52,044 nucleotides of DNA, taken from positions 1 through 52,044 of IMG/VR virus record IMGVR_UViG_3300028835_000313; one strand, written 5' to 3'. The stretch is from a virus (taxonomy: Duplodnaviria > Caudoviricetes). The notes under the pieces were generated by a model that saw only the letters and a program-made list of their open reading frames with translations, was not told the origin of the DNA and made no database searches. The position numbers were made by a program, and so were the translations under genes. Below are positions 787-49,553 of the stretch, piece by piece (within the stretch, counting starts at the first letter, position 1; every line of letters starts with the position of its first letter).

Positions 787-835
787 ATAACGGTTGGTGT
801 TTGTGGAGTTTTTAAACCGATTAAAAAGAAATAAA

Positions 836-1081
836 ATGGAATTAAGAGAATGTAATTTAGTACAATTAGCCGAACAAAAAAGACAACTAATTGAGAATAG
901 TGATGAAGATTGGAAACAAAGTATTCCCTACAAAGAACGTATGCGTGAAATTAACCGTTGTATCGATGTTATAAAAGCCGAAGGCGGTGCGGTTTGCGGT
1001 GCATGCTGGGGTTCTGGATGGGAAACACAGTTTATTACCCCATGCCGTACGTGCAATGGAACTGGTAAAATAGCAAACTGA
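836..1081 (+). CDS. Small protein with C-terminal DnaJ-type CxxCxGxG zinc-finger module (cassette-like)
   Basis: CGACWGSG...CRTCNGTG; ATG at 836 after an A-rich leader. Confidence 0.7.
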   Translation: MELRECNLVQLAEQKRQLIENSDEDWKQSIPYKERMREINRCIDVIKAEGGAVCGACWGSGWETQFITPCRTCNGTGKIAN

Positions 1082-1162
1082 TTTATAACTGCGTATATGT
1101 TCACCTTTTGTTATACAAACCTTTTAGAAATTAGATTATGAAACAATTTATCCTGAAATAGA

Positions 1163-1450
1163 ATGAAAAAACACACTAAATTATACTTTGATTTCTTCGA
1201 AGTTGATTATGATCCTGTTTCTGGCTGGCATGATTGCGTAAGTGAAATTTCAGGCGAACCTGCTGTTGATGTACACCATATAGAATCAAGAGGAATGGGT
1301 GGTTCTAAAAATGCAGATAAAATTGAGAATCTAATGGCATTAACCAGGAATGAACACGATTTTTATGGAGACAAAAAAGAACATTTAGAATATTTAAAAC
1401 AAATTCATGCAGATTATATTAAGAGATTTACCGAAAATAAGTCTCAATAA
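1163..1450 (+). CDS. Small HNH-type nuclease-like protein
   Basis: AVDVHHI...NLMALTRNEH motif. Confidence 0.65.
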   Translation: MKKHTKLYFDFFEVDYDPVSGWHDCVSEISGEPAVDVHHIESRGMGGSKNADKIENLMALTRNEHDFYGDKKEHLEYLKQIHADYIKRFTENKSQ

Positions 1451-1739
1451 ATGGTATGCTTCTGAACATTGGACTAATCGAAAGACAAGTAAGGATAATT
1501 ATAAACTTCTCGTAAAGAGCCAATTTAAGCACGTATTTAAGAAGGATAAACAATATGAGGTCGAATATATGTTTTGCTTTAAATCTCGTCCTCTTGATGC
1601 CTCAAATTGTATTGCAATGGTTAAATTGATTGAGGACATTATTTTTGAAGATGATAAGTGGGACATTATTTTAAATATTAAAATTTCATCAGGCAAAGCA
1701 TCTTCTGATTATGTAGTTATCGAAGTTAATGAAATATAA
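1407..1739 (+). CDS. RusA-like Holliday junction resolvase
   Basis: SLNKWY...RPLDASN...KLIEDIIFEDD acidic catalytic pattern. Confidence 0.6.
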   Translation: MQIILRDLPKISLNKWYASEHWTNRKTSKDNYKLLVKSQFKHVFKKDKQYEVEYMFCFKSRPLDASNCIAMVKLIEDIIFEDDKWDIILNIKISSGKASSDYVVIEVNEI

Positions 1740-1772
1740 TGCTGAAGGAATTGAATAAACGTATTAAAGAGT

Positions 1773-2057
1773 ATGATCTCATATAAGAAGTTAAAATATG
1801 TAGACGAGAAAGAAATCATTCCACGAAGATATTGTACAGATAAGCTATTTAAACAACTTAGGAAAGCCGGATTCGAGACTGCCGGATATGAGAAATCACT
1901 TGAATCGATTCTCCAGGATAAAGGCTTCGGGCTCCCGGTTAAATATAACGAGCATTTTGTATTCACTGTTAAAGGTAAGTACACTAGAATGTATCTAAAT
2001 TATGTAGATAGCCTGGCAAATGAAATTTTATTGTTACGTGAATTGAAATTGATATGA
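1773..2057 (+). CDS. Hypothetical protein
   Basis: ORF in operon context. Confidence 0.55.
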   Translation: MISYKKLKYVDEKEIIPRRYCTDKLFKQLRKAGFETAGYEKSLESILQDKGFGLPVKYNEHFVFTVKGKYTRMYLNYVDSLANEILLLRELKLI

Positions 2058-2101
2058 GAACACCTGAAATAAATACTTACTTAATAGACTGTATGGAATG
2101 A
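2054..2101 (+). pseudogene. 15-codon remnant resembling a DNA methyltransferase N-terminus (MRTPEINTYLIDCME*)
   Basis: Resembles the start of the next gene (MREINKIYCDNW) and the typical ...DC.E start of N4/N6 MTases. Confidence 0.4.
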
Positions 2102-3111
2102 GAGAAATAAATAAAATATATTGCGATAACTGGCTAAATAATAATCTGCCTGATAAGTGTGCAAAATTAATAATTGCAGATCCTCCATATTTTGAAGTAA
2201 AAGGAGAGTTTGATTTTATATGGAAAACATTTGAGGACTATTTAAAAGATGTTGAAAAGTGGGCGATTGAATGTAAAAGGGTGCTTGCTGATAATGGTAC
2301 TTTATTTTGGTATGGACATGCCAAAAATATAGCATACTCACAAATTATTTTTGATAAAATATTTGAACTTGTAAATAACATAGTATGGGAAAAAACAGAT
2401 TGCCAAACAAATAAAGGAATTGAATATTTTAGAATGTTTGCTCCAATAACTGAACGCATACTAATGTACCAACACAAAGATGAATATCACGATATAGTAA
2501 GGATGGCTATTGAAGAAGTCCAGAAATATTTAAATACATTAACAACAAAAAATGAATTAGCAGAAATGCTTTTGAATATTGGTAATTGTAAAAATATTGC
2601 AAGTGCTAAGCAAAATGCTCATAACATATTGAGCCAACGAAGTGCAAAACCACAAATGATAACAGAATTGCAGTATGATTTAATTGCAAAAGATAAAATG
2701 TTATACAGCGAATTGGCTGCGCTATATGAAATAAAAAGGATAGAATTTGATTTAAAAAGAAGACCATTTAATAATTTTAAAAAACTAAGCGATGTTCTTA
2801 AATTTAGCCAACAAGCCAATATTTCCGGGAATTACGACCATGACACAATTAAGCCGGAGAAACTAACAAGAGCCTTAATTTTGACTTGCAGCCGTAAAGA
2901 TGACTTAGTAGTAGTGCCATTTGCCGGAAGCGGAACAGAATGCGCTATGAGTGCCAAAGAAGGGCGACTATTTATAGGCTTTGACATTGAACAAAAACAT
3001 GTTAATACAAGCAATGAACGATGCAAAATACAGCTTCAGCGCAAAAACGATATTAAAGAGTTCGGATTCGCCAAGACTGAACTATCTAAAATCAATCCAA
3101 CTTTATTTTGA
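2098..3111 (+). CDS. Amino (N6-A/N4-C) DNA methyltransferase, beta class
   Basis: IIADPPY catalytic motif precedes the PFAGSGT SAM-binding motif. Confidence 0.92.
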   Translation: MREINKIYCDNWLNNNLPDKCAKLIIADPPYFEVKGEFDFIWKTFEDYLKDVEKWAIECKRVLADNGTLFWYGHAKNIAYSQIIFDKIFELVNNIVWEKTDCQTNKGIEYFRMFAPITERILMYQHKDEYHDIVRMAIEEVQKYLNTLTTKNELAEMLLNIGNCKNIASAKQNAHNILSQRSAKPQMITELQYDLIAKDKMLYSELAALYEIKRIEFDLKRRPFNNFKKLSDVLKFSQQANISGNYDHDTIKPEKLTRALILTCSRKDDLVVVPFAGSGTECAMSAKEGRLFIGFDIEQKHVNTSNERCKIQLQRKNDIKEFGFAKTELSKINPTLF

Positions 3112-3137
3112 TTTGTACAACTTTTGTATTACATTTG
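3107..3137 (+). promoter_or_regulatory. Bacteroidota primary-sigma promoter (TTTG-N19-TACATTTG)
   Basis: Matches the -33/-7 consensus; ATG at 3157. Confidence 0.65.
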
Positions 3138-3156
3138 CTATCAAACTATATTAGTT

Positions 3157-3339
3157 ATGGAAGATATACAAGAAAAAGCAACTTTGAGAGTTAAATCTTG
3201 CGTTAAAAGAAAGCTCTTTACAAAGACTGATTTTGCCAAAATGTTAAATATCGGCAGACCCACACTAGACTCCAGGTTGAAAAAAGGAGATTGGAGAAAG
3301 AAAGAGTTGGATATAATCTTTAACGAAACTGAATTCTAA
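3157..3339 (+). CDS. Small HTH (Cro-like) regulator
   Basis: TKTDFAKMLNIGRPTLDSRL HTH pattern; lies upstream of the antirepressor. Confidence 0.65.
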   Translation: MEDIQEKATLRVKSCVKRKLFTKTDFAKMLNIGRPTLDSRLKKGDWRKKELDIIFNETEF

Positions 3340-4082
3340 TGGACAATCTAATCAAGATTTACGATCATAAAGAATCAAGGGTAGCCAGTGCAAGGGATTT
3401 GCATTTATTTCTTGAAAGTAAACAGGATTTTTCTACATGGATTAAAAACCGTATAGATAAATTTGGTTTTATTGAAGATCAAGACTATACAACGTTCCAT
3501 AAAATTGTGGAGCGTGCAAAGAGAAAAGAGTATGCAATTACTATGGATATGGCTAAAGAACTTTCTATGGTTGAGAACAATGAAAAAGGACGTATTGCAA
3601 GGAGGTATTTTATTGATGCTGAAAAGAAATACCGACAATCAGTTCAATTATCGGTGCCACAATCTTATGCTGAAGCATTAGAACTTGCAGCCAAGCAAGC
3701 CAGAGATATTGAATCAAAGGATAAATTAATAGCTATTCAGGCACCAAAGGCTAGTTTTGCCGACAGAGTTATTGATTCTGAAGATAATCACCTTGTAGAT
3801 ATTGGTCAGGCTGCAAAACTGCTTAAAATACCCAACATGGGGCGGAATATATTCTTTGGTAAACTAAGGAATGATGGTATTTTATTCAATTCCAGGAACG
3901 AGCCTAAACAACAATACATCAATCAAGGCTATTTCGAACTACGTGAAAAGAAGATTGAACGAGAAAACCATTCATCATTTGTAGTTAACAAAGTTTTAGT
4001 TACTCAGAAAGGATTATTCTGGCTGTCTAAAAAGTATGGTGGAGAATTTAAACCTGGATTTCCTGCATTAAAAGTTGAATAA
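3339..4082 (+). CDS. Phage antirepressor (AntA/AntB N-terminal plus KilAC/ANT C-terminal)
   Basis: SARDLHLFLESKQDFSTWIKNRI...DMAKELSMVE; VPQSYAEALELAA; VLVTQKGL. Confidence 0.88.
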   Translation: MDNLIKIYDHKESRVASARDLHLFLESKQDFSTWIKNRIDKFGFIEDQDYTTFHKIVERAKRKEYAITMDMAKELSMVENNEKGRIARRYFIDAEKKYRQSVQLSVPQSYAEALELAAKQARDIESKDKLIAIQAPKASFADRVIDSEDNHLVDIGQAAKLLKIPNMGRNIFFGKLRNDGILFNSRNEPKQQYINQGYFELREKKIERENHSSFVVNKVLVTQKGLFWLSKKYGGEFKPGFPALKVE

Positions 4083-4698
4083 TATGAAAACACTACAATT
4101 AAACCACATCCAGCATTACCCTATGGGGAAGAATGGAGTAAAACTTATAACTGCAAAACATCAAATAAAATATGGGGAAAGAACTATTCTAACCCTGAAT
4201 GGTGTATGCTGGGATGATAACAATGATGATTTGAATATGGAATTTATCCATGAAAATGATTTAATATTTTCAAATTGTATGAAACCAATGCAATTAATCC
4301 TTCACGATCTATCCGACCTAACCAAACCAATAAAAGTAGAAGGCTATAACGATGGGAAAGAATTTATACCAATGGTGGAATTATTTCAAATGATATACAC
4401 AGATGAGTTGATAGAAATGTTTAATAATTTCAATGGGTATAAGCTTGGCTGTAATAAGGAGAATGATTGTTATTACATGATATTTGATAATTATGACTTT
4501 GATGGTGTTCACACTAAAGCAGAATATGAAGTTCAATTTTATTATAAAAATGGATGTTTAGTTCTGGATGTTCCTGTTTGGATGGATAATGTGATAGAAA
4601 ATAATTATTCCCTATACCAAAAACTATTTGAATGGAAATTTGACGTATTCGAATTAATCCCGGGCGGTTTAGCGATAGATGTAAATACCATAAAATAA
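4075..4698 (+). CDS. Hypothetical phage protein
   Basis: 207-aa ORF ending DVFELIPGGLAIDVNTIK. Confidence 0.7.
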   Translation: MNNMKTLQLNHIQHYPMGKNGVKLITAKHQIKYGERTILTLNGVCWDDNNDDLNMEFIHENDLIFSNCMKPMQLILHDLSDLTKPIKVEGYNDGKEFIPMVELFQMIYTDELIEMFNNFNGYKLGCNKENDCYYMIFDNYDFDGVHTKAEYEVQFYYKNGCLVLDVPVWMDNVIENNYSLYQKLFEWKFDVFELIPGGLAIDVNTIK

Positions 4699-4704
4699 AT
4701 AACA

Positions 4705-5412
4705 ATGTCAGATTCATGCAATATTAAATTAGAGCCATATAAATACAGATGTTTATGCGGAGGGGTAGTTACTAGAGAAAATTGGAAAAATAAGGGATAT
4801 AAATTTAACAATGTAAGCGGATTTAAATGGATGCCTTGTAGTAAATGTGGTAAAAATTACACTAATCAAGATAGAGGCGTACATATTTATTACATTGAAG
4901 AAAATGAGTATTGGATTGATATGCTGGGATACAAAGGTGCTTATAAAATAAGTAATCACGGAAGAATTAAGTCTTTAAAGAGAAAAGACTCTATTGGGAG
5001 AAAGGTTAATGAAAAGATGATAAGTCAAAGGTTATCAAAAGAAGGATATTTTATGGTTAAACTCTACAATAAAAGATATCAAGTTCATCAATCAATGGTA
5101 GAATCATTTCTACAAACAAAAACAGATGGTAAAAATTTCGTCGTCAATCATATTGATCATAACAAGGAAAATAACCACTTATCCAATTTAGAAATCGTTA
5201 CCCCAAGACAAAATTCAAACAAAAAACATATAAAGCATTCTTCAAAATACACAGGAGTAACATGGAACAAGAACAAAAACAAATGGACTTCTAGGATATA
5301 TCTAAATGGAAAATTAAAACATTTAGGTCATTTCGATAACGAATATGAAGCTCATCTAGCATACGAAAAAGAATTAGAAGGAATCTGGATAGATATTAAC
5401 ACACTTGATTAA
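4705..5412 (+). CDS. NUMOD4-HNH-AP2 homing endonuclease with N-terminal Zn-finger extension
   Basis: W.DMLGYKGAYKISNHGRIKS; VNHIDHNKENNHLSNLE; SKYTGVTW...HLGHFDNEYEAH. Confidence 0.88.
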   Translation: MSDSCNIKLEPYKYRCLCGGVVTRENWKNKGYKFNNVSGFKWMPCSKCGKNYTNQDRGVHIYYIEENEYWIDMLGYKGAYKISNHGRIKSLKRKDSIGRKVNEKMISQRLSKEGYFMVKLYNKRYQVHQSMVESFLQTKTDGKNFVVNHIDHNKENNHLSNLEIVTPRQNSNKKHIKHSSKYTGVTWNKNKNKWTSRIYLNGKLKHLGHFDNEYEAHLAYEKELEGIWIDINTLD

Positions 5413-5437
5413 TATAAATCAAATTAAATAAACAGTT

Positions 5438-5788
5438 ATGGAACACTTATTTTATGATGGTAATTTCTATAGTGAATTGTCTGAATACTTAGAATACCAC
5501 GACATAAAAAGGGAAGAAGTCGAATCTTATCCAGATGATTATAAACTAGAGATGAACGGTTCAAAATTAGAGCCAATAGTTCAGTTTGATGCTGAATGGA
5601 TAAGTGAAAGGATTTGCGAAGAAAGATTTTCTGAGAATAATTGTGACAGTGAAACTTCTAAAATAATGAAGGCCTTAAATGACTGTATAGATTTTGACAA
5701 ACTCAATAGTCAGATACCAAAGCTTTATTATGAGAACAGGAGAGACAAATGTGTATTTACTAAAGCAGATTTATTGGAATTGTTATAA
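5438..5788 (+). CDS. Hypothetical acidic protein
   Basis: ORF flanked by a direct repeat. Confidence 0.65.
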   Translation: MEHLFYDGNFYSELSEYLEYHDIKREEVESYPDDYKLEMNGSKLEPIVQFDAEWISERICEERFSENNCDSETSKIMKALNDCIDFDKLNSQIPKLYYENRRDKCVFTKADLLELL

Positions 5789-5835
5789 TACACTTGATTA
5801 AATAACACAACTTTAAAACAATTTGAACTAAAGTC

Positions 5836-6012
5836 ATGGTAGAAAAAGGACAAACAATAAAGTTTAAAGATGGACTTAAATATGAAGTACTAAAAGTTTT
5901 CGATACAGGTCATGCAGATTTAAAATCTAAACAACCTTTATTTGAATGGATGCCAGATTTTTACCCTGTTTTCTATTCAATCAAACTTAAAGATTACGAG
6001 ATAATTAATTAA
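5836..6012 (+). CDS. Hypothetical 58-aa protein (not in ORF track)
   Basis: MVEKGQTIKFKDG...YEIIN*, fills the gap in the operon. Confidence 0.55.
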   Translation: MVEKGQTIKFKDGLKYEVLKVFDTGHADLKSKQPLFEWMPDFYPVFYSIKLKDYEIIN

Positions 6013-6030
6013 CCTTTAAAACAAACGACT

Positions 6031-6216
6031 ATGAAATATTTAATAAGAGTTCAGGCCAATCATGATTGCTGGATTGCAGATGGAAGTAGCGATCCTTCGA
6101 GAACAACAATTAAAAAACATGCAAAGGTTTTTAGTAAAAAGCATATTGCTGAAAAACGAAAAGTAAAACTTGAAAGAGAGTACCCAAATAGAGCATTTTC
6201 AGTTGAACCAGTTTAG
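6031..6216 (+). CDS. Hypothetical protein
   Basis: ORF with A-rich leader. Confidence 0.6.
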   Translation: MKYLIRVQANHDCWIADGSSDPSRTTIKKHAKVFSKKHIAEKRKVKLEREYPNRAFSVEPV

Positions 6217-6262
6217 TTCCCATTAAAACTAAGTATCCAATTAAACACTTAAAATAAAACAA

Positions 6263-6481
6263 ATGAAAAACAAAGTCAAATCAATTACTGAAGCATTTTC
6301 AATGCAACCTGCAACATTAAGTATTGTGGACAAGCCAGCAAAATTCAATCCTAAAGATTCAATAAAAGAAATTAAATTGGAAATTGTAAATGGTGATCTT
6401 AATGTTTATACTGGATACAATTTTGATGGGAAAAGGCTTTTTATGTATAATGCCAAATCAGTAAATGTCCACTGTGTTTAA
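6263..6481 (+). CDS. Hypothetical protein
   Basis: ORF with A-rich leader. Confidence 0.6.
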   Translation: MKNKVKSITEAFSMQPATLSIVDKPAKFNPKDSIKEIKLEIVNGDLNVYTGYNFDGKRLFMYNAKSVNVHCV

Positions 6482-6498
6482 AGGAAAAGCAATTTATT

Positions 6499-6744
6499 AT
6501 GGCATATTTTAGTAATTCATCAGACGGGGCAATATTTGACGAACAGTGTTCTAAGTGTAAATACGGAGAAGATTCTTGTCCAATTGCAACAGCTCAATTT
6601 CTTTATAATTATGATGTCTGTGGTAATAAAACAGCAACCAATATTTTAAATACAATAGTGGATGAAAAAGGTATTTGTCAAATGCGACATACTTTTAAAA
6701 AGGATTTAGCTACAGACGGAAGCACACAAATAAAATTATTCTAA
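6499..6744 (+). CDS. Cys-rich hypothetical protein
   Basis: CSKC...CP...C pattern. Confidence 0.6.
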   Translation: MAYFSNSSDGAIFDEQCSKCKYGEDSCPIATAQFLYNYDVCGNKTATNILNTIVDEKGICQMRHTFKKDLATDGSTQIKLF

Positions 6745-6788
6745 TTGCGTTTGAAGAGATTATAACTTATTTGAATAACTAAAATATT

Positions 6789-7106
6789 ATGAATAAAGAA
6801 AAATTAGCAGAAAACCACGCAAAAGAAATGTGGGGCGACCCAGCACTGCAAAGACAAAGAGAATACGCACAGCATTCTTTTAAAAAAGGATATGAAGCCC
6901 ACGAAAGTGAAGTTAAAAATTTACGTAGGGAAAAACTAGCTGAAAGTATATTGATAGCATTACTTCAAAACCCTGAGAGGTATAAATATATAGCCGGGAA
7001 AGTTGAGAGTGGAGAACTTAAACAAGAAGAAGCAAACCTTAAAAACATAAAAAAAGCCTATAAAATAGCTGATAGCTTTTTGAATATTGAGGTAAATGAA
7101 CGTTAA
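6789..7106 (+). CDS. Hypothetical protein flanked by a 19-bp direct repeat
   Basis: TAACTTATTTGAATAACTA at 6763 and 7104. Confidence 0.65.
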   Translation: MNKEKLAENHAKEMWGDPALQRQREYAQHSFKKGYEAHESEVKNLRREKLAESILIALLQNPERYKYIAGKVESGELKQEEANLKNIKKAYKIADSFLNIEVNER

Positions 7107-7121
7107 CTTATTTGAATAACT

Positions 7122-7505
7122 ATGGAAGCAACATATTTACGAATTGGAAATTATTTAATTGATAGAGACAACAGGCTATGCAGAGTAGAAGCAATAAAGC
7201 CAGATGATTATAAAGAATGCGAATATGAGTTTGAAGCACCTGCAATAAGTGGAGCAATTACAGGATTACCACACAAACCTATTCAATTAACAGAAGAATG
7301 GTTGGTTAAATCGAACGCCAAAATAATTAATGCCAATTTCCAATCATATATCTTGGAAAGATTTATATTGACATGGAAAAGTGCCTATAAGTATTGGTAT
7401 GTTATGGATTCAGAAAGCTTAACTTATCTGACAAAAATAGAATTCGTTCACGAGTGGCAGAATTTCTACTTTGTTATGCAGGGAGTAGAATTAAGATTTG
7501 AATAA
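7122..7505 (+). CDS. Hypothetical phage protein, paralog of 42387..42800
   Basis: Shared LRIGNY...PI.LTEEWLVK...VH..QN.YF motifs. Confidence 0.7.
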   Translation: MEATYLRIGNYLIDRDNRLCRVEAIKPDDYKECEYEFEAPAISGAITGLPHKPIQLTEEWLVKSNAKIINANFQSYILERFILTWKSAYKYWYVMDSESLTYLTKIEFVHEWQNFYFVMQGVELRFE

Positions 7506-7528
7506 TTAAAAACTATTCACTACATTTG
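7497..7528 (+). promoter_or_regulatory. Bacteroidota promoter (TTTG-N20-TACATTTG) upstream of the helicase
   Basis: Consensus match. Confidence 0.6.
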
Positions 7529-7671
7529 CTTACAGCAACAATTTATTAAACAAGTATCAATTGAAATTTTATTTAAAAACATAGTACAGATTAAGGGGAG
7601 AGAATTCGAAACGCTTGTTTAGAATTGTTGCTAACTCGAACCTTTCTCTGTGCGTTCATATCTTAGCAACT

Positions 7672-8829
7672 ATGAAATACAAATTACGAGACTATCAAAT
7701 TGATTCATCAAGAGCGGCAATCGATTATTTTGAGGAAGACAGCAATAAAAATGCAATAATGGTACTACCTACAGGTTCCGGCAAAAGTTTAATCATTGCT
7801 GAAATTGCATTTAATTTATCAAATCCTACTATTATTTTTCAACCGTCAAAAGAAATTTTAGAACAAAACTTTGCTAAACTTCAATCTTATGGCATAATGG
7901 ATTGTTCTATTTATTCCGCTTCTTTTAATTCAAAAAAAATAAGCCGCATTACACTAGCTACTATTGGAAGCGTGAGAACGAAACCAGAACTATTTAAGCA
8001 TTTTAAAAATATAATAATTGATGAGTGCCATTTAGTAAATGCAAAGAAAGGCATGTATAAGGAGTTTTTGGATAATTTAACTGGAAAGGTGTTAGGATTA
8101 ACAGCAACACCTTATCGTTTAACTACTGATGGATGGGGCGGCTCTATACTTAAATTTTTAACACGCACAAGACCACGTGTTTTTGTTGATCTTATTTATT
8201 ATAGTCAGATATCCGATTTATTAGAAAGAGGCTATTTGAGCAAAATTGATTACTACCAAATAAAAGCAGTTGACACAAATCAATTACAATTAAATACCAC
8301 AGGTGCAGATTATACAGACAGTTCAGTAAAAAACCATTATAATGCTATTAAATTCCCAAACAAGTTAATTGAAATAATTTCACGCTTAATTGTTTCTGAA
8401 CGTCAAAATATATTAGTGTTTACTAGATTTATAGAAGAGGCTCAATTTGTAGTGGATCAAATGAATGGATTAGCTGAAATAGTAACTGGTAAAACACCAA
8501 AAAAAGAACGAGAAACACTTCTTAGTAATTTTAAAACAGGACAAATAAGAGTAATGTTAAACGTTGGAGTATTAACCACCGGATTTGATTTTCCAGAACT
8601 ATCTACCATCGTTTTAGCAAGACCTACGAGATCACTTGCATTATATTATCAAATGATTGGACGTGGAATAAGACCACATGAAAATAAAGAATCTGCATGG
8701 GTTATTGATCTTTGTGAAAACTATAAAAGATTCGGTAAAGTTGAAGATTTAAAAATATCATCTTCTAAGCCTAATTTATGGCATATTGAGAATAATAAAA
8801 AACAATTAACGAATGTTTATTACGATTAA
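7672..8829 (+). CDS. SF2 DExH helicase (RadD/YejH-like)
   Basis: LRDYQ, PTGSGKS, DECH, TAT, GFDFP, QMIGRGIR; ATG at 7672. Confidence 0.92.
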   Translation: MKYKLRDYQIDSSRAAIDYFEEDSNKNAIMVLPTGSGKSLIIAEIAFNLSNPTIIFQPSKEILEQNFAKLQSYGIMDCSIYSASFNSKKISRITLATIGSVRTKPELFKHFKNIIIDECHLVNAKKGMYKEFLDNLTGKVLGLTATPYRLTTDGWGGSILKFLTRTRPRVFVDLIYYSQISDLLERGYLSKIDYYQIKAVDTNQLQLNTTGADYTDSSVKNHYNAIKFPNKLIEIISRLIVSERQNILVFTRFIEEAQFVVDQMNGLAEIVTGKTPKKERETLLSNFKTGQIRVMLNVGVLTTGFDFPELSTIVLARPTRSLALYYQMIGRGIRPHENKESAWVIDLCENYKRFGKVEDLKISSSKPNLWHIENNKKQLTNVYYD

Positions 8830-8831
8830 TC

Positions 8832-9485
8832 ATGGCAGAAAATAAAAAATCATTTATCGCCTACATAGATTGGAAGGAGACATTTGATTCTCTTCCTGAT
8901 GATAAAGCTGGTCAATTAATAAAGCACATATTTGCATACGTCAATGACGAAAATCCACAAACTGATGATATTTTAATTAATGCTGTATTCGCCAATATAC
9001 GGCAAACTCTTAAAAGAGATTTAAAGAAGTGGGAAAAACAACATCAACAAAGAGTTGAAGCCGGTAGAATAAGTGCTGAAAAAAGAAAGCATCCGTCAAC
9101 GACCATTGAACGACCGTTGAACGAAACTCAACAAGCGTCAACTGTTAGTGTTAATGATAGTGTAAGTGATACTGTAACTGTTAAAAAAAAGAGTATAGAT
9201 GACAGAAAATCGGATTTTAAAAAATCCTTACTCCCTCATTTAGAAAAATATGGCAAGGATATTCTTAATGAGTTTTATGCTTATTGGACAGAACATGGTG
9301 AAAGTGACCGAAAGATGAGATTTGAGAAACAGACTAGTTTTAGTATTACAAGAAGATTGTCCACTTGGAAAAAAAATGAAAATAAATTCAGTTCAAATGA
9401 AAAAAATAAATCAAATAACAGGGGAGGCTTTGAAAGTGATACCACGAAACGCACAATTGAGCAAATCCAAAACGGATTTGAATAA
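8832..9485 (+). CDS. Putative replication initiator (DUF6291-like N-terminus)
   Basis: KKSFIAYIDW...L.D..AGQLIK.IF.Y; low-complexity linker; FYAYW...RLSTW C-terminus. Confidence 0.7.
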   Translation: MAENKKSFIAYIDWKETFDSLPDDKAGQLIKHIFAYVNDENPQTDDILINAVFANIRQTLKRDLKKWEKQHQQRVEAGRISAEKRKHPSTTIERPLNETQQASTVSVNDSVSDTVTVKKKSIDDRKSDFKKSLLPHLEKYGKDILNEFYAYWTEHGESDRKMRFEKQTSFSITRRLSTWKKNENKFSSNEKNKSNNRGGFESDTTKRTIEQIQNGFE

Positions 9486-9942
9486 ACGTTCAGAAGCCGT
9501 TTTAAACCGTTTTGAGACAGCTAAAGATTTTGCGGTGCAATTTAACATGGACTATTGTGCTAATAAATATATCGCTATCAAGACGAATTACGAAGGGCTA
9601 ATGTCAAACACGGTTAAACTGAGAGAACTTTCAGATTGCTATGGTGATAAAAATATTTCCAATTGGATTGCATCTTGGTTAGTTGTTTTGTCCAGTAAAA
9701 TGGATTTCCAAATAAGCCCGGAACAGGCTGGAACCACTTCTGTTTTGATTTTAGAAGAATTATATATGATTAACATTTCTGAATTCTCTCTTTTCTTTAA
9801 ACGATTACTTAAAGGTGACTACGGGATATTCTATGGTAAGTTTAATATCCAAACGATATTGATGGCATGTAAGGAATTTAGGATGCAGAGAGGATTTGTA
9901 TTGTCGAAATTGAGTGAAGAGGATCAATTAAAACTATTGTGA
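9322..9942 (+). CDS. Replication-associated protein downstream of the initiator (start uncertain, possibly 9376 or 9397)
   Basis: Position; GDYGIFYGKF motif. Confidence 0.55.
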   Translation: MRNRLVLVLQEDCPLGKKMKINSVQMKKINQITGEALKVIPRNAQLSKSKTDLNKRSEAVLNRFETAKDFAVQFNMDYCANKYIAIKTNYEGLMSNTVKLRELSDCYGDKNISNWIASWLVVLSSKMDFQISPEQAGTTSVLILEELYMINISEFSLFFKRLLKGDYGIFYGKFNIQTILMACKEFRMQRGFVLSKLSEEDQLKLL

Positions 9943-9943
9943 A

Positions 9944-10195
9944 ATGGAAACAAATTATCAAAAAGCAAAAAGAACATTAATAGACAATTCAGCAATTTTA
10001 GGGATAGAATTGCCGGAAGATGGACTTATACTTAGAATGCTAAAATTAGCTGCTACACCTGACAAAGATTTATTGGATGCAGCAAGGGACTGTAGTACTT
10101 GTAAACATCAACAAGTAAGTAAATACGTAGAACCTTGTTATGGTTGCAGGGACAATGATGGCTATGATAATTTTGAAAGTACTATTGTAATATGA
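9944..10195 (+). CDS. Cys-rich hypothetical protein
   Basis: CSTC...PCYGC. Confidence 0.6.
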   Translation: METNYQKAKRTLIDNSAILGIELPEDGLILRMLKLAATPDKDLLDAARDCSTCKHQQVSKYVEPCYGCRDNDGYDNFESTIVI

Positions 10196-10413
10196 ATCAA
10201 ATCTACGAACAGCATAAAAGAAGTGAAGCTAATTAAAAATTAAAGGATGATAATATTAATAGTACTGATAATTTTATTTATAATAGGGCTTTGCTTAATG
10301 GATGAGCGAGTTTTCAATTAGTAAAGCGGAGAAATAAACGAGCTTCTTAGCGAGTTAGTTTGTTTACAACGGTGTTGGTATGGCATTTTATTTTACGGAT
10401 TAAAAGCACGGAC

Positions 10414-10737
10414 ATGGATAAAAAAACAATAGAAATACTAAACTTTCTTAAAGAAAAATCAGTATTTGAAACGAGCGAAAACGGTAATAAGGGACATGTA
10501 ATTTGGAGTAATGAATTTTATAAAGTAGCACAGGAGTTAGTAAAATTATTTACTATACCTGATGTTAGCTTTTTTCTTAAAATTCCGCCTCCAAATTTAA
10601 AGCAAAAAAATATTTCAGAAAAGTCAGAAATAGCTAAGCAGCTAAAGAATAAAGGATATAGTATCAGAGAAATAATGAAAATACTTGGATATAAATCTCC
10701 CAGAAGCATTCAAGTGCTGTTAGCAAAGGAATTTTAA
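10414..10737 (+). CDS. Chimeric-looking protein with C-terminal HTH module
   Basis: GYSIREIMKILGYKSPRSIQVLL; junction GTT at 10564. Confidence 0.65.
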   Translation: MDKKTIEILNFLKEKSVFETSENGNKGHVIWSNEFYKVAQELVKLFTIPDVSFFLKIPPPNLKQKNISEKSEIAKQLKNKGYSIREIMKILGYKSPRSIQVLLAKEF

Positions 10738-10807
10738 TATTAAAGCTAACGGTTGGCTGTAAACGGAGCTTGAGAATTGTGAAAGAATTTTATAAAAAAG
10801 AAATATT

Positions 10808-10993
10808 ATGGAAGATGTAATTTATTATTTGATGGATGACCTTCATAAGAGCTATAGATTTAAGGCGAAATATGAAAAGAGAGATAACGTAAAAATGGTT
10901 GGTATCATATCAAAAAGGATTGATAATTTCGAGAAAGCTATTTCTATTTTAGAAAAGGCTGAGAACAATACACGAGTGGAGGTAATTCGATAA
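10808..10993 (+). CDS. Hypothetical protein
   Basis: ORF within the module array. Confidence 0.6.
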   Translation: MEDVIYYLMDDLHKSYRFKAKYEKRDNVKMVGIISKRIDNFEKAISILEKAENNTRVEVIR

Positions 10994-11066
10994 AACGATT
11001 TATATAAGTTGTCGAAATTTTGGCAGCACGCAGAGAATTTGATTTAACAACTAAAAATAGAATACA

Positions 11067-11348
11067 ATGAAAAACTTAATTAAAAGAATACATTTTGCAA
11101 TTTATATTTTGTTAGCGGTAGTTGTTTTTGGATGCAATAACAAACCAAAAAACAATCCTAAAATAGACCGCAGTAAATTATACAGAGAAGCATCCTATTA
11201 TAGCATAGAAGCATCGTGGTGCTATAAGCAAGCCACTATCGCTGTATTTGAGAGAAATAAACACAAAAAGGATTCATTAGTGTTAAAGGCGATTGAATAT
11301 AGTAAGAAAGCGGATAGTTTAACAAATGTAGCCAACAATTACCGCTAA
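11067..11348 (+). CDS. Putative lipoprotein
   Basis: Signal peptide with VFGC lipobox-like motif. Confidence 0.65.
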   Translation: MKNLIKRIHFAIYILLAVVVFGCNNKPKNNPKIDRSKLYREASYYSIEASWCYKQATIAVFERNKHKKDSLVLKAIEYSKKADSLTNVANNYR

Positions 11349-11393
11349 CGTAAATAATAAACACTGATTTTTAACGGATAAATAACTACGAAC

Positions 11394-11648
11394 ATGACAG
11401 AACAAGAAAAGATTGATAAAGTAGCCGATAAAGTAACTGAATACACAACAGCAACAATGCACAACCAAGGACTAATTAGTTACAATGATATACCAAAATT
11501 AGCAACTGAGATAGTTAAAAATTTGGGTTTATTTAGTGTTAGCAATAACGAAGTGGCGGTTTGCGAAACCTGTAAAACACCGCTTCAATTATTTAATGAT
11601 GGTAGACCATTTTGCCCTAGCTGCCTAAAGATTTATAAAGCAAACTGA
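11394..11648 (+). CDS. Protein with C-terminal CxxC...CxxC Zn-ribbon module
   Basis: CETC...CPSC after the GTT junction at 11538. Confidence 0.65.
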   Translation: MTEQEKIDKVADKVTEYTTATMHNQGLISYNDIPKLATEIVKNLGLFSVSNNEVAVCETCKTPLQLFNDGRPFCPSCLKIYKAN

Positions 11649-11692
11649 TTGCAACGTTCTGTGCATGAACTTTAATTAAAATTATTTGAGCG

Positions 11693-11896
11693 ATGGGAAA
11701 AAGAGTAGTTTATTTAAAAGAGTTCGATACATTCGGAGAAGAAGTTGATGTGAAGGTAACGTGCAATAATTGGAATGCCTTTCTGCGAGTGTGGGATATT
11801 GAAACTCTCCAATTAATAATGGATACACAAATTCAAAATGAAAATTATGAAGCAGCTGGACTTATTAAGGAACATATAGAACGGAAAGGTGCGTAG
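11693..11896 (+). CDS. Hypothetical protein with UVR-like C-terminus, enclosed in an inverted repeat
   Basis: ENYEAAGLIKE. Confidence 0.6.
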   Translation: MGKRVVYLKEFDTFGEEVDVKVTCNNWNAFLRVWDIETLQLIMDTQIQNENYEAAGLIKEHIERKGA

Positions 11897-12068
11897 GCAA
11901 TTTTAATTATTGTTTATTGCACTTTGTTGTAAATTGAGAAATTTTTACAAAAAGGTTACCAGTCGATAATATCTCTGTTCATAATTAAATGTATTAATTT
12001 ACAAACAAAGATAGTAAAAATTTATTTGTTTATAACTTGTTTATATCAACAACTAATTCATATCTATA

Positions 12069-12266
12069 ATGGCTAAACCTATTGATTTACAATATACTTA
12101 TAAAAAGCATGTGGGTTTTACTCAGATTCAAAAAGAATCCTTAATAACACTTAAAAACTATGGTGTAGATGTGAATCAATTTATTAGGCAGGCAGTAAAA
12201 GAAAAGATTCTCCGCGATTGGAAAGAAATAAAAGAAAGTAAAAATAAAGCGTATTGTCCATTTTAA
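12069..12266 (+). CDS. Small putative DNA-binding (ribbon-helix-helix-like) protein
   Basis: VNQFIRQAVKEKI. Confidence 0.5.
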   Translation: MAKPIDLQYTYKKHVGFTQIQKESLITLKNYGVDVNQFIRQAVKEKILRDWKEIKESKNKAYCPF

Positions 12267-12268
12267 AT

Positions 12269-12296
12269 AAAAAAGCCGGAGTCAACACCCCGGCTT
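12269..12296 (-). terminator. Intrinsic terminator at the convergence of the two arms
   Basis: AAGCCGG...CCGGCTT stem with an A-tract on the left. Confidence 0.75.
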
Positions 12297-43595: not shown

Positions 43596-43710
43596 ATAAG
43601 GTGAATTTAGAATTTGGACATATCAGTGTATTTACTCAAATTTTCTCAACAGCGGTTGAGCTAATTTCACCTTATATATCGCCCGTGCCTTACTCGTACG
43701 GGCTTTTTTT
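43596..43710 (+). ncRNA. Promoter-hairpin-terminator unit 1 (candidate sRNA or attenuator)
   Basis: TACTTTGC at 43587; ATAAGGTGAA...TTCACCTTAT stem; GCCCGT...ACGGGC-T7. Confidence 0.5.
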
Positions 43711-44054
43711 GTATATAGGTGTTCAGAGATGTTTTTTTAATTCCAGTTAATCAATAACCATATTACACTGGTTATGATCGAATACAGTATAAAAAGACTT
43801 AGAACAGATACAACGTGCAGATGTTAAATCATTCACTTAAATACAAAGTAGTTCGTTCTACGACTTATGAGCCTTTGTAGCCACGTTGAACTCAGAACTC
43901 ATTATACTGAGAATATAGGTGTGAGTTAAGTTATTCTCTTATAAGGGGAAGGGGATGACTTAACTTTTCACACCAGTTGAATCTTGAATCTATTACCAAA
44001 GAATGCTATACAACATACTCTAAAATTATATAGTTTAATTAGTTTGAATTAATT

Positions 44055-44082
44055 TGCAAGGGTATAAAGAAAAAGAAATGTC
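44055..44082 (+). repeat. 28-bp dispersed repeat, copy 1
   Basis: 27/28 identical to 48934-48961. Confidence 0.9.
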
Positions 44083-44120
44083 AAAGAACGAAAATATTAA
44101 CTAAAAATACAAAAAATAAA

Positions 44121-45529: not shown

Positions 45530-45935
45530 CATCTCACAGTTTCCTGCAAGCTCTGTGGGATTACTAACCGGCTATCGTAACTGAAGCCGGTTTTCGCAGT
45601 AGGACACTAAAGCTTTTTGAAATGAAAACAAACCCATTTGTTGACCTGGATTTATCCGGTTGGTTATTAGACGAAGAATCCTTAAAAAGGATTGAAGAAA
45701 TAAGATGGATTCATAGGAGACTTAAATTTTTAGATAATATTAAGATTGGAAGTAATGAAAAATCAAAAGCGTGAACCAGTTACTAAACGACATTTAATCT
45801 TAGCAATTATACTATTTCTGTTTTTAGTAATAGGAATACCTGTTATTGTAAAGTTGATTAATTGGTTGTTTCCGGTTATTTAACGGTCTGTGCATGTTTA
45901 GTTGCATAAGTTACAAATAAAATAAAATAATAAAA

Positions 45936-46166
45936 ATGGATTTAGAGGAAAAGTATAAAGAAGAAACTGGCTTCAATGTTGGTAAAATACACGACATTGG
46001 AACTACGTATTATAGCAATGACTATGTAGAATGGTTGGAAAAGCAATTAAATATGCACTTTGTTAGCAATAGCGAAGCGAAGTGTTGCGAACCTGCTCCA
46101 AAATTTGCATTAGGAACGATATGTCCAATTTGCAATCGTCCATGTAGAATAGTGAATCTAACGTGA
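45936..46166 (+). CDS. Chimeric-looking small protein with Cys-rich C-module
   Basis: GTT junction at 46062; CC...CPIC..PC. Confidence 0.6.
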   Translation: MDLEEKYKEETGFNVGKIHDIGTTYYSNDYVEWLEKQLNMHFVSNSEAKCCEPAPKFALGTICPICNRPCRIVNLT

Positions 46167-46756
46167 ACAACATTATTACTAACTTTAAAGATATAAGTCT
46201 ACGGGGTGACTTTAATAGAAATGGCAGATTTAAAAGACTTTAAGGGTAAAAGAGAAGATAATTATACAGAAGATTATCCAGAAATATACGATAAAAAATG
46301 TGGTATTGAATATTGTATAAAAAAGGATACTTGTAACCAAATACAAATACCAGGAATATTGAAAGAAGAAAAAGTAAAATGTATAAACTATAAAACTGTA
46401 TTAGATGGCTAAATTATCAGATGCCCAAAATAAGGCAATATTTTACGAAATGATGTATGATATTGAAAAACGTAAAAACAAAAAGCTATTAATAATTATA
46501 ATAAGCACGATTGTTTTATGTGTGATGGCTTTTTTATTTTATTGTATATAACTTAAATGTAATGACACTTTTTGTTATACAAAACATTTAAATACTCATG
46601 GAATATCTAATACTAATATTCTGCATTATCGCAGTAGGAGCATTTCTAACCTTTATTTTCTTCCAATGGTTGAAGATTAAGGAAAATTCCAATATTAGAT
46701 CAGAAGATAATGACGGTTTGGCTAAGTTTTGAAGTTTAATGGATAAATAAAATAAA

Positions 46757-47020
46757 ATGATAACAGAATATAAAATAGTAGAAATACTTAAAAAAAATAC
46801 ACAGGAGTATATTAGTGATGGTGAAAACGTAGTATTAACAATAAATTCAGACAATTTAAAAAATCTTAAACAGGACTTAGTTAAACTTTTAAATTTAGCT
46901 ATTGTTACCCAGCATAGCGAACTGTTAAGCGATTTTGCAGACCATTGGAATAAGAATAGTTATGAATTTATGAACGACTTTCACATAAGCGAATATCTAA
47001 AATCGCTTAATTGTGGGTAA
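46757..47020 (+). CDS. Chimeric-looking small protein
   Basis: GTT junction at 46904. Confidence 0.6.
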   Translation: MITEYKIVEILKKNTQEYISDGENVVLTINSDNLKNLKQDLVKLLNLAIVTQHSELLSDFADHWNKNSYEFMNDFHISEYLKSLNCG

Positions 47021-47284
47021 CTATGTTTTATAGCATGTCCGTAAGTGTTTTACGACATATAAATAGTTAGCTTTTATTACTTACTTTGAAATATCAAAAA
47101 CAAAATAATGACTTATCACAGAACATTTAACGAATCAACAGTAGAGTCTTATAAAGAGCCGGAATCAACAGATTGCTCGGAATGTGAGAGCGACATAACT
47201 ACTTATATTAATTGTGTAGGTGGTATTGAAATTCGGAAATGCCATGATTGTGATAATTATTTTGAAGTAGAGGAGGAATAAATT

Positions 47285-47982: not shown

Positions 47983-48580
47983 ATTCGACATAAAACAAAA
48001 TTCGGATGAGTGGTTTGCTTTAAAAGTTGGTAAATTCAGTGCTTCAACTTGCGCAGAGCTTTTGATGAATAAAAAAACAAAAGGCTACACAGGATTAATC
48101 GATCGAATAGTTGAGGAAAGAATGACCGGGAACCCAACCGAAAGTAAAACATTTAAAGGTAATCAATTTACTGAACGAGGTCATGAATTAGAGCCGGTAG
48201 CCAGGGATGATTACGAAATGCGAACATTCCGGGATATTGCTATAATTGGCGTTATTGAATTGGATGATTGGGTTCTTTGCTCTCCAGATGGATTGATAGG
48301 AGAAGATGGATTGTGGCAAGCTAAATGCCCTATATTCAATACTCAGAAAAGTTATTTGAAAAGCCAGAAAGTACCTACAAACTATTACAAGCAAATGCAA
48401 TTTGAATTGTTTGTTTCTGGCCGTGAGTATAATGTGTTTAACTCTTATCATCCATATTTACCAGCGGTTGATATTGTTGTTAAACGCGATGAGGAAATGA
48501 TAACTATAATCCAGCAACGGATAAAAGAAGCAAAGAAAGAAATTTTGAATGAAATCAAATTACTTAAAAGTTTTGCGTAA
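47969..48580 (+). CDS. YqaJ/lambda-exonuclease-family recombination nuclease
   Basis: QNSDEWFALKVGKFSAS, RGHELEP.AR, SPDGL, QAKCP, YYKQMQF. Confidence 0.9.
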   Translation: MPQYRFDIKQNSDEWFALKVGKFSASTCAELLMNKKTKGYTGLIDRIVEERMTGNPTESKTFKGNQFTERGHELEPVARDDYEMRTFRDIAIIGVIELDDWVLCSPDGLIGEDGLWQAKCPIFNTQKSYLKSQKVPTNYYKQMQFELFVSGREYNVFNSYHPYLPAVDIVVKRDEEMITIIQQRIKEAKKEILNEIKLLKSFA

Positions 48581-48603
48581 CCAAATTAAAAGTGCTACTT
48601 TTG
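48572..48603 (+). promoter_or_regulatory. Bacteroidota promoter (TTTG-N20-TACTTTTG)
   Basis: Exact consensus. Confidence 0.65.
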
Positions 48604-48604
48604 C

Positions 48605-48717
48605 TATATGATGTTTCAGTTAAGAATAAATAATGTATTTTCATTTCTTTCTCTAACAGAGGTTAGGGCTGGAACATCATATATAAACCCGTTCAGATTA
48701 ATTTCTGGATGGGTTTT
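48605..48717 (+). ncRNA. Promoter-hairpin-terminator unit 2 (candidate sRNA or attenuator)
   Basis: TATATGATGTTTCAG...CTGGAACATCATATA stem, then AAACCCGTTCAGA/TCTGGATGGGTTT. Confidence 0.5.
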
Positions 48718-48933
48718 GTTATATAGCGGTGTTCAGATGGCTCTACCGTTCCGAAAGGATAAAAAAAGTGGCGTAATGAAATTTAACTGGAGAAATTGCA
48801 TACCCAAAAAATCCAGTTCTCGTAAAAGTGTAGTTGATTGTATTAAAGCTACCACCTTACAATTAGGTGCAAGGGGCGAAACTATCGAGTAATTACAGGT
48901 TTATTCAGTTAAACATCAATTGCATAGGATGTA

Positions 48934-48961
48934 TGCAAGGGTATAAAGAAAAAGATATGTC
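48934..48961 (+). repeat. 28-bp dispersed repeat, copy 2
   Basis: 27/28 identical to 44055-44082. Confidence 0.9.
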
Positions 48962-49078
48962 TATGACTAGTTTAAACAACATGCTATACAGCATACAGAA
49001 TAATTTTTCTATTTAAAGATAGTGAAGTAAATTGCGTTGACGAAAAGAATAACAATTAAATTATAAATTACAAGTGCG

Positions 49079-49459
49079 ATGGAAAAATGGGAATATAAAT
49101 ATATATGGATTGAAAAAGAAAAAGAAGATGAATGGATAGATATTGTAAATGAATTAGGCAATGATGGGTGGCAATGCGTTCAGGTTTTTATGGCTCAGCG
49201 CACGAATGGTAGACATCGAATTTTATCAAAAAGAAGAGTTGTTGTGCGAGGGTATAAAACCGAATCTAGTGATAGCAACTGCAATTTAGCTGGTGTTAAT
49301 GGTAGTCTTTCTATAGATTATCTTGTTAATGTGCTAAAAAGAACGCTAACAGGAAACGATGAAGTAAGAGTCGAATTTGATAATAAAGAAGACAATATCA
49401 ATTACGTACTTGATATATGTAATAATTTCAAAAAGGAATTAGAAAAAGATTGCAAATAA
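49079..49459 (+). CDS. DUF4177-like N-module fused to an unrelated C-module
   Basis: KWEYKYI...NELGNDGW; GTT junction at 49295. Confidence 0.65.
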   Translation: MEKWEYKYIWIEKEKEDEWIDIVNELGNDGWQCVQVFMAQRTNGRHRILSKRRVVVRGYKTESSDSNCNLAGVNGSLSIDYLVNVLKRTLTGNDEVRVEFDNKEDNINYVLDICNNFKKELEKDCK

Positions 49460-49553
49460 CAACCCGTCTAAACGGAGTTTATATTTGACGAATAGATTTT
49501 ATTCTTAAAGCGAAGCGTGAGATTCTTAATTATTATTTTAAAATTATAAAAAG

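Follow-up and report, generated by a model that had tools for sequence, protein, structure and literature searches.

The virus record analysed here (IMG/VR IMGVR_UViG_3300028835_000313, Caudoviricetes; 52,044 nucleotides (nt), all of which we refer to as the window) carries several small early genes of one family, which are composed of two units with complementary arms at the ends of each; the same family occurs in at least two dozen uncultivated relatives. The arms keep their pairing while their sequence changes, and the units are exchanged between phages with boundaries at or near the arm ends. We favour, with a probability of roughly 0.45, an explanation in which the arms form sense-strand RNA helices and, being conserved, double as homology patches for recombination.

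Two units and two helices in each gene

The N-unit begins at an upstream ..CTAAC|G and ends at a junction GTT; between these lie a conserved leader (..TTTTTAAC GGAT..) and a coding stretch of about 40 codons. The C-unit extends from the junction GTTAG.. to a ..CTAAC past the stop codon. Some C-units contain a Zn-ribbon, others a helix-turn-helix or a helical module, and some are empty. Helix 1 (20-21 base pairs, bp) joins an arm in the 5' leader to codons ~40-47, which encode ..VK(K/N)L..; its arms lie 133-171 nt apart, and the resulting units of 168-211 nt enclose about 40 codons with their start codon and leader. Helix 2 (8-23 bp) joins the Val-Ser junction (GTTAG..) to the region at or just past the stop codon (..CTAAC), enclosing 18-174 nt of coding sequence (312 nt in one outlier). 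AAC or GTT is found at all four unit boundaries, and a G directly follows most of the AAC arms. The conserved GTTs encode Val within a conserved peptide (..LVK(K/N)L.. and ..VS..); the AACs complement these codons. The inner end of helix 1 reads TTTTAAC/GTTAAAA in 24 of 27 sequences and otherwise TAC/GTA (gene 10414) or AAT/GTT or no AAC (genes 46757 and 45936). The elements are always oriented along transcription, and arrays of them are present in two other complete phage records and in contig L080.

L080 has, on its reverse strand (363-1053), a run of three small genes whose ends read ..GGCTAAC or ..TGCTAAC and which each have a matching GTTAGC.. junction upstream. The third (gene C) consists of an N-module only and ends a few codons past the junction, so that its helix-2 arms lie 20 nt apart in a compact, 'empty' hairpin of 38 nt.

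A sequence-only reading of the window had described a genome-wide, attC-like hairpin cassette system in at least seven open reading frames (ORFs 836, 10414, 11067, 11394, 45936, 46757 and 49079). Each of these seven was found as an ORF in the window, and in six of them the named GTT is read in frame as Val, the exception being the GTT at 11111 (ORF 11067). The shared architecture was only partly confirmed: four genes (10414, 11394, 45936 and 46757) have both helices and are confirmed in full, ORF 11067 has a helix of type 2 only, and the arms of ORFs 836 and 49079 are at chance level. Instead of being genome-wide, the feature is confined to two early-gene clusters, at ~10.37-11.66 kb and 45.89-47.02 kb:

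10377-10396, + strand: 5' arm of helix 1 (L1), gene 10414; variant core ..TTTTAC then GG; 15 Watson-Crick pairs and one G:U of 20
10377-10559: covariance-model match of gene 10414, 103 bits (training sequence)
10414-10737, + strand: ORF 10414; N-module (residues 1 to ~50), disordered linker, C-terminal helix-turn-helix module
10540-10559, + strand: 3' arm of helix 1 (R1), gene 10414; encodes VKLFTIP; its core GTA compensates the TAC of L1
10564-10586, + strand: 5' arm of helix 2 (L2), gene 10414; starts with the in-frame GTT AGC (Val-Ser) junction; 20 of 23 positions complementary
10728-10750, + strand: 3' arm of helix 2 (R2), gene 10414; spans the stop codon and ends ..GCTAAC then GG
11111-11126, + strand: helix-2-type 5' arm of the lipoprotein ORF 11067-11348; within the signal peptide, GTT out of frame
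11334-11349, + strand: helix-2-type 3' arm of ORF 11067; ..CGCTAAC across the stop, 6 nt before the L1 of the next gene
11356-11375, + strand: 5' arm of helix 1 (L1), gene 11394; ends ..TTTTTAAC, followed by the conserved GGATAAATAA leader
11514-11533, + strand: 3' arm of helix 1 (R1), gene 11394; encodes VKNLGLF
11538-11655, + strand: C-unit of gene 11394; Zn-ribbon module
45890-45910, + strand: 5' arm of helix 1, gene 45936; diverged core without AAC
46039-46058, + strand: 3' arm of helix 1, gene 45936; from the inverted-repeat scan and the 27-sequence alignment
46062-46183, + strand: C-unit of gene 45936; Zn-ribbon flanked by GTTAGCAATA and TATTACTAAC; arms 46062-46071 and 46174-46183
46721-46740, + strand: 5' arm of helix 1, gene 46757; overlaps the end of ORF 46598-46732
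46880-46899, + strand: 3' arm of helix 1, gene 46757; encodes VKLLNLA
46904-47021, + strand: C-unit of gene 46757; GTTACCC and GGGTAAC at its ends; arms 46904-46910 and 47015-47021
787-1091, + strand: ORF 836; decayed copy of the leader element at 787-828, claimed arms at chance
49079-49459, + strand: ORF 49079; DUF4177-like N-terminus, no supported arms, outside the system

A covariance model of the arms, as the sequence-only reading had proposed, was built and run against the window with filters off. It scores genes 10414, 11394, 45936 and 46757 at 72-103 bits, all four being in the training set. Beside the 103 bits of gene 10414, gene 11394 matches at 11356-11533 with 92.8 bits, gene 45936 at 45891-46057 with 72 bits and gene 46757 at 46721-46899 with 84 bits, all of these being training sequences. 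The corresponding inverted repeats score 11 in gene 11394 (11356-11375 with 11514-11533), 10 in gene 45936 (45890-45905 with 46043-46058) and 10 in gene 46757 (46721-46739 with 46881-46899). The second helix varies more in strength. In gene 11394 it is weak, the junction GTTAGCAA forming ~7 bp with a bulge against the post-stop TTGCAAC, with two Watson-Crick pairs beyond the core in an ungapped count and an end-versus-body p of 0.69. Gene 45936 has seven Watson-Crick pairs and one G:U at positions 4-14, and the C-unit of gene 46757 contains an inner perfect helix of 12 bp (46925-46936 with 46999-47010). In ORF 11067 the GTTAGC...GCTAAC pair is complementary at 15 of 16 positions (score 13, p 0.01), and helix 1 is absent (upstream-versus-body p 0.41). 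An AlphaFold model of p10414 built from seven sequences predicts the C-terminal helix-turn-helix with confidence (block-mean predicted local distance difference test, pLDDT, of 80-93 at residues 71-107), models the N-module poorly (pLDDT 37-64) and gives a disordered junction at residues 49-57 (below 50).

Within the window itself the arms stand out little. We scanned for ungapped inverted repeats with arms up to 400 nt apart, using block-wise dinucleotide shuffles (n=40) as controls, and found 13 repeats with a score of at least 12 (6.35 ± 2.4 in the shuffles) and one with a score of at least 14 (0.68 in the shuffles). The top-scoring repeat (score 14; p 0.005 versus its own shuffles) is helix 2 of gene 10414, 10564-10586 with 10728-10750. 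All 76 ORFs of at most 700 nt were also put through a blind arm test, each against its own shuffles (end versus body and upstream versus body). Only four of the seven named ORFs beat their shuffles: 10414 (p 0.005), 11067 (0.01), 11394 (0.025) and 45936 (0.045). In the stop-region test five of the 76 reached p<=0.01, and two of those five are late genes. ORF 836 gave p 0.26 (end versus body) and 0.58 (upstream versus body), with a covariance-model match at 800-934 of 12.3 bits (E 3.6); ORF 49079 gave 0.99 and 0.43, respectively. Nor are the motifs GTTAGC and GCTAAC over-represented in the window (9 and 5 copies, with 7.4 and 7.2 expected). Taken alone, the window makes a weak case, and it is covariation in related phages that argues for the reality of the arms.

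Other sites in the window touch on the element. Stretches 11654-11667 and 45884-45896, both intergenic, share ..AACG(T/G)TCTGTGCATG.. directly past the stops of ORFs 11394 and 45746, the second stretch being in part the helix-1 5' arm of gene 45936. ORF 10808 has an inverted repeat between leader and coding region (10788-10805 with 10939-10956; 18 nt with mismatches, 133 nt apart, p 0.01) that is unrelated in sequence to the arms of the system, has the geometry of helix 1 and is known from the window copy alone. Two marginal covariance-model matches were not counted as members: 49535-49694 (23 bits, E 0.039) and 6748-6925 (25 bits, E 0.017). The latter lies upstream of and inside ORF 6789, whose protein has ..EVKNL..; only its inner 6-7 pairs fit, and it may be a decayed member.

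Covariation and module exchange in related phages

Viral contigs were scanned with the 18-nt leader string, which gave 15 loci, and with a looser two-motif pattern, which gave 68. Eight of the 15 leader-string loci were analysed; those dropped were L081 and L086 (which repeat L079), L075/L085 and L082/L088 (no start codon past the motif) and L077 (52% GC). Nine of the ten genes first analysed have helix 1, in which 20 nt ending ..TTTTTAAC are complementary to an in-ORF ..GTTAAAAA.. located 136-161 nt downstream. The pattern-scan set was bimodal, at least 15 Watson-Crick pairs of 20 being present in 16 of 54 distinct loci and at most 13 in the other 38. Across 27 sequences, 92.9% of helix-1 cells are paired, compared to 80.2 ± 0.9% after shuffling; both sides have changed in 12 of 20 pairs (50 cells), and slid registers leave 28-55% paired. 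In a set of 12 sequences the paired fraction was 91.7% of cells and 12 of the 21 pairs had changes on both sides, and RNAalifold, run on 12 elements with no structure supplied, predicted the outer 19-pair helix 1 and nothing else. The comparison with shuffled sequence that the sequence-only reading had proposed has two outcomes: repeats in the window barely exceed their shuffles, and helix 1 in the 27 sequences was equalled by none of 500.

For helix 2 the counts were anchored on two points, the GTT of the junction and the AAC past the stop codon. Pairing at positions 4-14 in 16 loci amounts to 6.75 Watson-Crick pairs when both arms come from one locus and to 4.31 when they come from different loci (permutation p<=5e-5), and in 8 of 27 loci no foreign arm equals the locus's own. 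The triplet after GTT varies (AGC, GTA, ATA, AAC, ACC, AAG), and its complement precedes AAC. Metagenome contigs L050 and L051, which encode two-part relatives of p10414, keep the pairing between junction and post-stop region by compensatory change, with ..AGT../..ACT.. in one and ..AGC../..GCT.. in the other; in L051 the 18-nt leader string of window gene 11394 is located upstream of a different N-module. L076, a homologue of window gene 46757, keeps the inner helix of the C-unit with both coding arms changed. That N- and C-modules alternate, each with its own inverted termini, and that arm sequences differ while pairing is kept, is thus borne out by covariation and by the comparison of own with foreign arms.

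The units are also exchanged. An exhaustive HMMER search with p10414 returned 54 proteins including itself, in three groups. One group shares only residues ~55-105, the helix-turn-helix, alone or behind unrelated N-termini. Another (P0009, P0010, P0018) shares only residues 1 to ~47-67, after which the protein ends or continues into a Zn-ribbon-like or different helix-turn-helix tail. The third consists of two-part proteins with a conserved ..VSN(C/S).. junction. In a further example, P0002 is 76% identical to the first half of p11394 and divergent from there on. At the DNA level, four contigs (L112, L144, L148, L152) have in common an N-unit of ~200 nt at 72-83% identity between unrelated upstream genes and unrelated C-modules, the similarity beginning at ..CTAACG and stopping at the junction GTTA. 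The swapping of partners claimed by the sequence-only reading is therefore upheld.

Swapping at the GTT is likewise upheld as far as DNA comparisons were obtained. Comparison of element pairs gave 14 high-scoring segment pairs (HSPs), of which two were self-overlap artefacts of L104 and were removed. All 12 retained HSPs start -8 to +18 nt from the upstream AAC; nine end between -3 and +7 nt of the junction G, two extend to +16 to +22 and one stops early. For C-units there was one informative DNA pair (L050/L051), with similarity from 15 nt ahead of the junction to 2 nt past ..CTAAC. Beside the L050 element, at 490-2037 (- strand), lies a gene for a 515-aa DDE-type transposase, beginning ~40 nt beyond the point where the two-part gene ends in ..CTAACGG; this may be an insertion sequence that inserted there.

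Further searches were negative. Viral contigs held no close relatives of p11394, a route through DUF6291 proteins led to 36 loci with the small ORFs in none, and the protein atlas had no match to p46757 at >=0.9. In the assembled contigs of one DNA run, which may be the one that the window derives from, two joints of low support were seen (7306>9379 and 9930>10437). Neither coincides with the boundary of an element, although such contigs cannot show circles or rearrangements.

The putative folded strand and a proposed role for the arms

Helix 1 carries a strand bias. Its non-Watson-Crick cells comprise 54 G:T in nine columns and one A:C in one column, which favours the coding strand. In ~580 nt of context, the minimum free energy (MFE) fold of the sense RNA includes helix 1 in 16 of 26 instances, that of + strand DNA in 12 and that of - strand DNA in 8, with mean pair probabilities of 0.56, 0.43 and 0.17, respectively. 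The N-unit folded alone has helix 1 in the MFE fold in 24 of 26 instances. We infer that RNA is the molecule that folds. The helices would be structures of the sense strand of early mRNAs that keep a U-rich leader and the 3' end paired, and this pairing would make initiation and stability depend on ribosome traffic, providing translational coupling and end protection. The conserved arms would at the same time be patches of near identity, 30-40 nt long, between otherwise unrelated genes, within which general homologous recombination would cross over, with YqaJ exonuclease, NinB and RusA encoded by the phage; only recombinants with both helices intact would survive. Breakpoints would then fall at helix ends because only helix-preserving recombinants survive. 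The apparent GTT/AAC core would be explicable because the GTTs are Val codons of a conserved peptide and the AACs their complements, and the triplet is not sacrosanct, TAC/GTA in ORF 10414 keeping both Val and pairing.

Long-range pairings between the 5' leader and the coding region couple translation in the mRNAs of MS2-type phages. The helices described here resemble these in joining an initiation region to a distant coding segment, to be melted by ribosomes, and differ in that the partner lies in the same gene, the start codon is in the loop, the arrangement is repeated gene after gene and a second helix surrounds the C-terminal half. For the recombination part an analogy would be the promoter-early stem-loops (PeSLs) of T4-type phages, described in the excerpted text of PMC2839356 as intergenic, local stem-loops with sigma-70 promoter and terminator activity. 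As portrayed there, PeSLs are short conserved regulatory cassettes among small non-essential early phage genes and serve as recombination points for modular shuffling; similarity blocks in our phages are likewise bounded by conserved arms with unrelated sequence on both sides. In contrast to the PeSLs of that excerpt, the arms here are 133-171 nt apart, one arm of each pair is coding and the exchanged unit is half a gene. A consensus scan for sigma-70 promoters in the two clusters gave 18 candidates (11.0 ± 4.2 shuffled) and 10 (10.6 ± 3.4 shuffled), none at the elements, and a consensus scan for terminator-like sites in both clusters likewise found none at the elements. The favoured explanation would thus work like PeSL cassettes as the excerpt presents them (PMC2839356), but inside genes.

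Several results weigh against this explanation. In context, the sense-RNA fold misses helix 1 in 10 of 26 instances; the window copies have mean pair probabilities of ~0 (11394 and 10414) and 0.41 (46757), and the thermodynamic z-scores are only -1.1 and -1.4. The related sequences are not independent, so that the shuffle controls overstate significance. RNA structure does not account for the G after most AAC arms or, beyond the Val-codon argument, for AAC or GTT at all four boundaries, and it leaves the empty hairpins unexplained. P0002 departs from p11394 at the first codons of R1, so that the interior of an N-unit is movable without its 3' arm. Template-switch correction of quasi-palindromes could produce compensatory-looking changes without selection, and a site- or structure-specific recombinase equally predicts sharp breakpoints at arm ends.

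The last of these points leads to the reading closest to the original claim, in which the arms are structure-specific DNA recombination sites that fold as single strands and are cut at AAC|G and GTT by an enzyme acting in trans, from the host or a co-infecting element, with N- and C-cassettes excised and inserted as in integrons but with the crossover inside ORFs. Maintenance of structure while sequence varies, except in short AAC/GTT cores, is the principle of integron attC sites in the excerpted text of PMC5027507, and the AAC or GTT at each of the four boundaries, the G that follows most AAC arms, the similarity blocks that end within a few bases of the cores and the compact empty helix-2 hairpins beside filled ones (L080 gene C, loop of 20 nt) all fit. 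Nevertheless, as the sequence-only reading had correctly stated, no tyrosine recombinase is encoded: PF00589 had no match in the complete window record, with 14 of 14 control genomes positive, and an ordinary phage integrase was found in one of five related records. Pfam scans of the window proteins showed no reverse-transcriptase, transposase or other recombinase family. Covariation has taken the core of ORFs 10414, 45936 and 46757 away from AAC/GTT; the bases just inside helix 1 are unpaired (gene 11394, by eye), and RNAalifold finds no inner helix; G:T pairs and predicted folding favour the coding strand, the bottom strand folding worst; the arms are complementary for 17-20 nt beyond GTT, which a G|TT crossover would break; and there are no joints at element ends, in assembled contigs. 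We consider DNA sites of this kind doubtful, and rather unlikely the fuller version, a structure-specific cassette system inside phage genes whose hairpin-defined N- and C-modules are cut and rejoined at AAC|G / GTT of folded single strands. Were the latter true, it would be an integron-like shuffler of protein domains instead of whole genes.

Membership of the attC class itself fails. An attC is a compact site downstream of a promoterless ORF, whereas the phage helix-1 unit is 168-211 nt long, with a start codon and some 40 codons inside it. According to the excerpt of PMC5027507, attC sites have R boxes RYYYAAC / GTTRRRY with an invariant AAC/GTT triplet as the cleavage point, an inner L-box helix, a central spacer that is unpaired, extrahelical bases, a bias towards bottom-strand folding and more G:T on the bottom strand. 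The likeness lies in conserved structure with sequence variable save AAC/GTT, in arms proper to each cassette and in arrays with one unit per gene. Unlike the integron case, the window record lacks IntI, the loops are coding, the AAC/GTT core covaries away in some copies, and no inner paired boxes are seen (gene 11394 by eye; RNAalifold), extrahelical bases not having been searched systematically. Helix 2 has GTT on its 5' arm, the reverse polarity, and G:T pairs favour the coding strand with pair probabilities of 0.43 for + DNA and 0.17 for - DNA, opposite to the bias given in that excerpt. The interpretation put forward by the sequence-only reading is accordingly supported in part: module shuffling holds and the integron component does not.

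A distinctly improbable alternative is that the N-unit is a selfish miniature palindromic element, of the type of MITEs (miniature transposable elements with inverted repeats) or Rickettsia palindromic elements (RPEs), one that carries its own leader and start codon with a short coding module, is propagated by a transposase in trans and becomes fused in frame to the sequence downstream of it. Its size of ~200 nt, its terminal inverted repeats of ~30 nt (CTAAC..L1 / R1..GTTAG) and the several copies per genome, in many genomes with unrelated flanks, fit such an element, and palindromic units that insert in frame into ORFs are known from RPEs (excerpt of PMC10969869). RPEs and MITEs, as far as that excerpt describes them, are palindromic units of ~150-200 bp giving in-frame coding sequence, and the phage N-unit gives a start codon and ~50 residues in frame with varied C-modules. 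The phage unit differs from the internal inserts of the excerpt in comprising a start codon and N-terminal domain. Moreover, the window copies are old (<=28% protein identity) and strongly diverged, their arms differ such that there is no single terminal-repeat or transposase-binding consensus, orientation is always that of transcription, the Pfam scans gave no transposase, and no target-site duplication is apparent in the flanks (by eye, uncounted). Complementarity arising as a functionless by-product of intramolecular template switching would produce paired changes without selection, in a region that is AT-rich and repeat-rich; we regard it as very improbable given arms 133-171 nt apart, two G:T positions and an internal mismatch kept uncorrected in at least 23 of 27 sequences, and arms at the same codons in genes otherwise diverged beyond recognition. 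Chance inverted repeats in AT-rich DNA, picked by eye, are suggested by the small excess within the window and by the chance-level scores of two named ORFs out of seven and of several arm pairs out of the fourteen claimed; for ORFs 836 and 49079 chance is still the reading that fits best. In the case of the four core genes it is refuted by covariation in 27 sequences from other contigs and by the bimodal scores of the independent pattern scan (16 versus 38 of 54 loci), and as a general explanation it is hardly credible.

Other candidates were dropped. The Pfam scans contained neither a reverse-transcriptase family, which retron-like priming would need, nor the enzyme for HUH sites of the IS200/IS605 type, and by eye no conserved slippery site for programmed frameshifting or bypass was seen at the junction. 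N4-type hairpin promoters have local arms; they too were dropped, the arms here being ~140 nt apart.

The phage genome and the meaning of the element

The window is a complete tailed-phage record with an exact direct terminal repeat of 144 bp (1-144 and 51901-52044), consistent with a complete assembly that is terminally redundant or circularly closed. Genes on the + strand (1-12.3 kb and 43-52 kb) have replication and recombination functions, their products including an SF2 helicase, a DNA methyltransferase, Ant, YqaJ exonuclease, NinB, RusA-like proteins and three HNH endonucleases; those on the - strand (12.3-43 kb) encode the terminase, portal, HK97-type capsid protein, tape-measure protein, tail fibre and amidase. 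The HNH genes (1163-1450, 4705-5412 and 49922-50668), two with NUMOD4 and one of those also with AP2, suggest that the early regions contain free-standing homing endonucleases. Where the divergent gene blocks meet, 370 nt without an ORF (43751-44120) adjoin an inverted repeat (43596-43610 with 43661-43675) and could be a control region or origin. Between the convergent early and late blocks lies a GC-rich hairpin with T-runs (12272-12297), the sole terminator-like site in 10150-12350. An identical near-palindrome of 14 nt, TTTTGTTATACAAA, occurs in two intergenic positions, downstream of ORF 836 (1106-1119) and upstream of ORF 46598 (46570-46583), and could be an operator or promoter element. 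A tRNA scan of the window found none.

Rfam, which has no attC family, gave no match at the gathering threshold to either strand of the whole window. GenBank phages had no match by megablast (1-12000), blastn (10340-11700) or tblastn (p10414). The literature searched held only unrelated papers and no described equivalent of the paired-arm element, which is not proof of absence. If the helices are real structures of RNA or DNA, which the covariation indicates, the element, described in none of these sources, is a cis-element widespread in uncultivated phages and amounts to a new structural rule that ties nucleic-acid structure to protein domain boundaries. It would give a concrete, testable account of how the members of small early protein families in phages exchange their DNA-binding heads while sharing one N-terminal module, and a test bed for separating recombination at conserved regulatory patches from structure-specific recombination. 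A practical use is that the arm pattern marks members of this gene family, together with the limits of their units and their start codons, in metagenomic phage contigs in which protein searches yield nothing.

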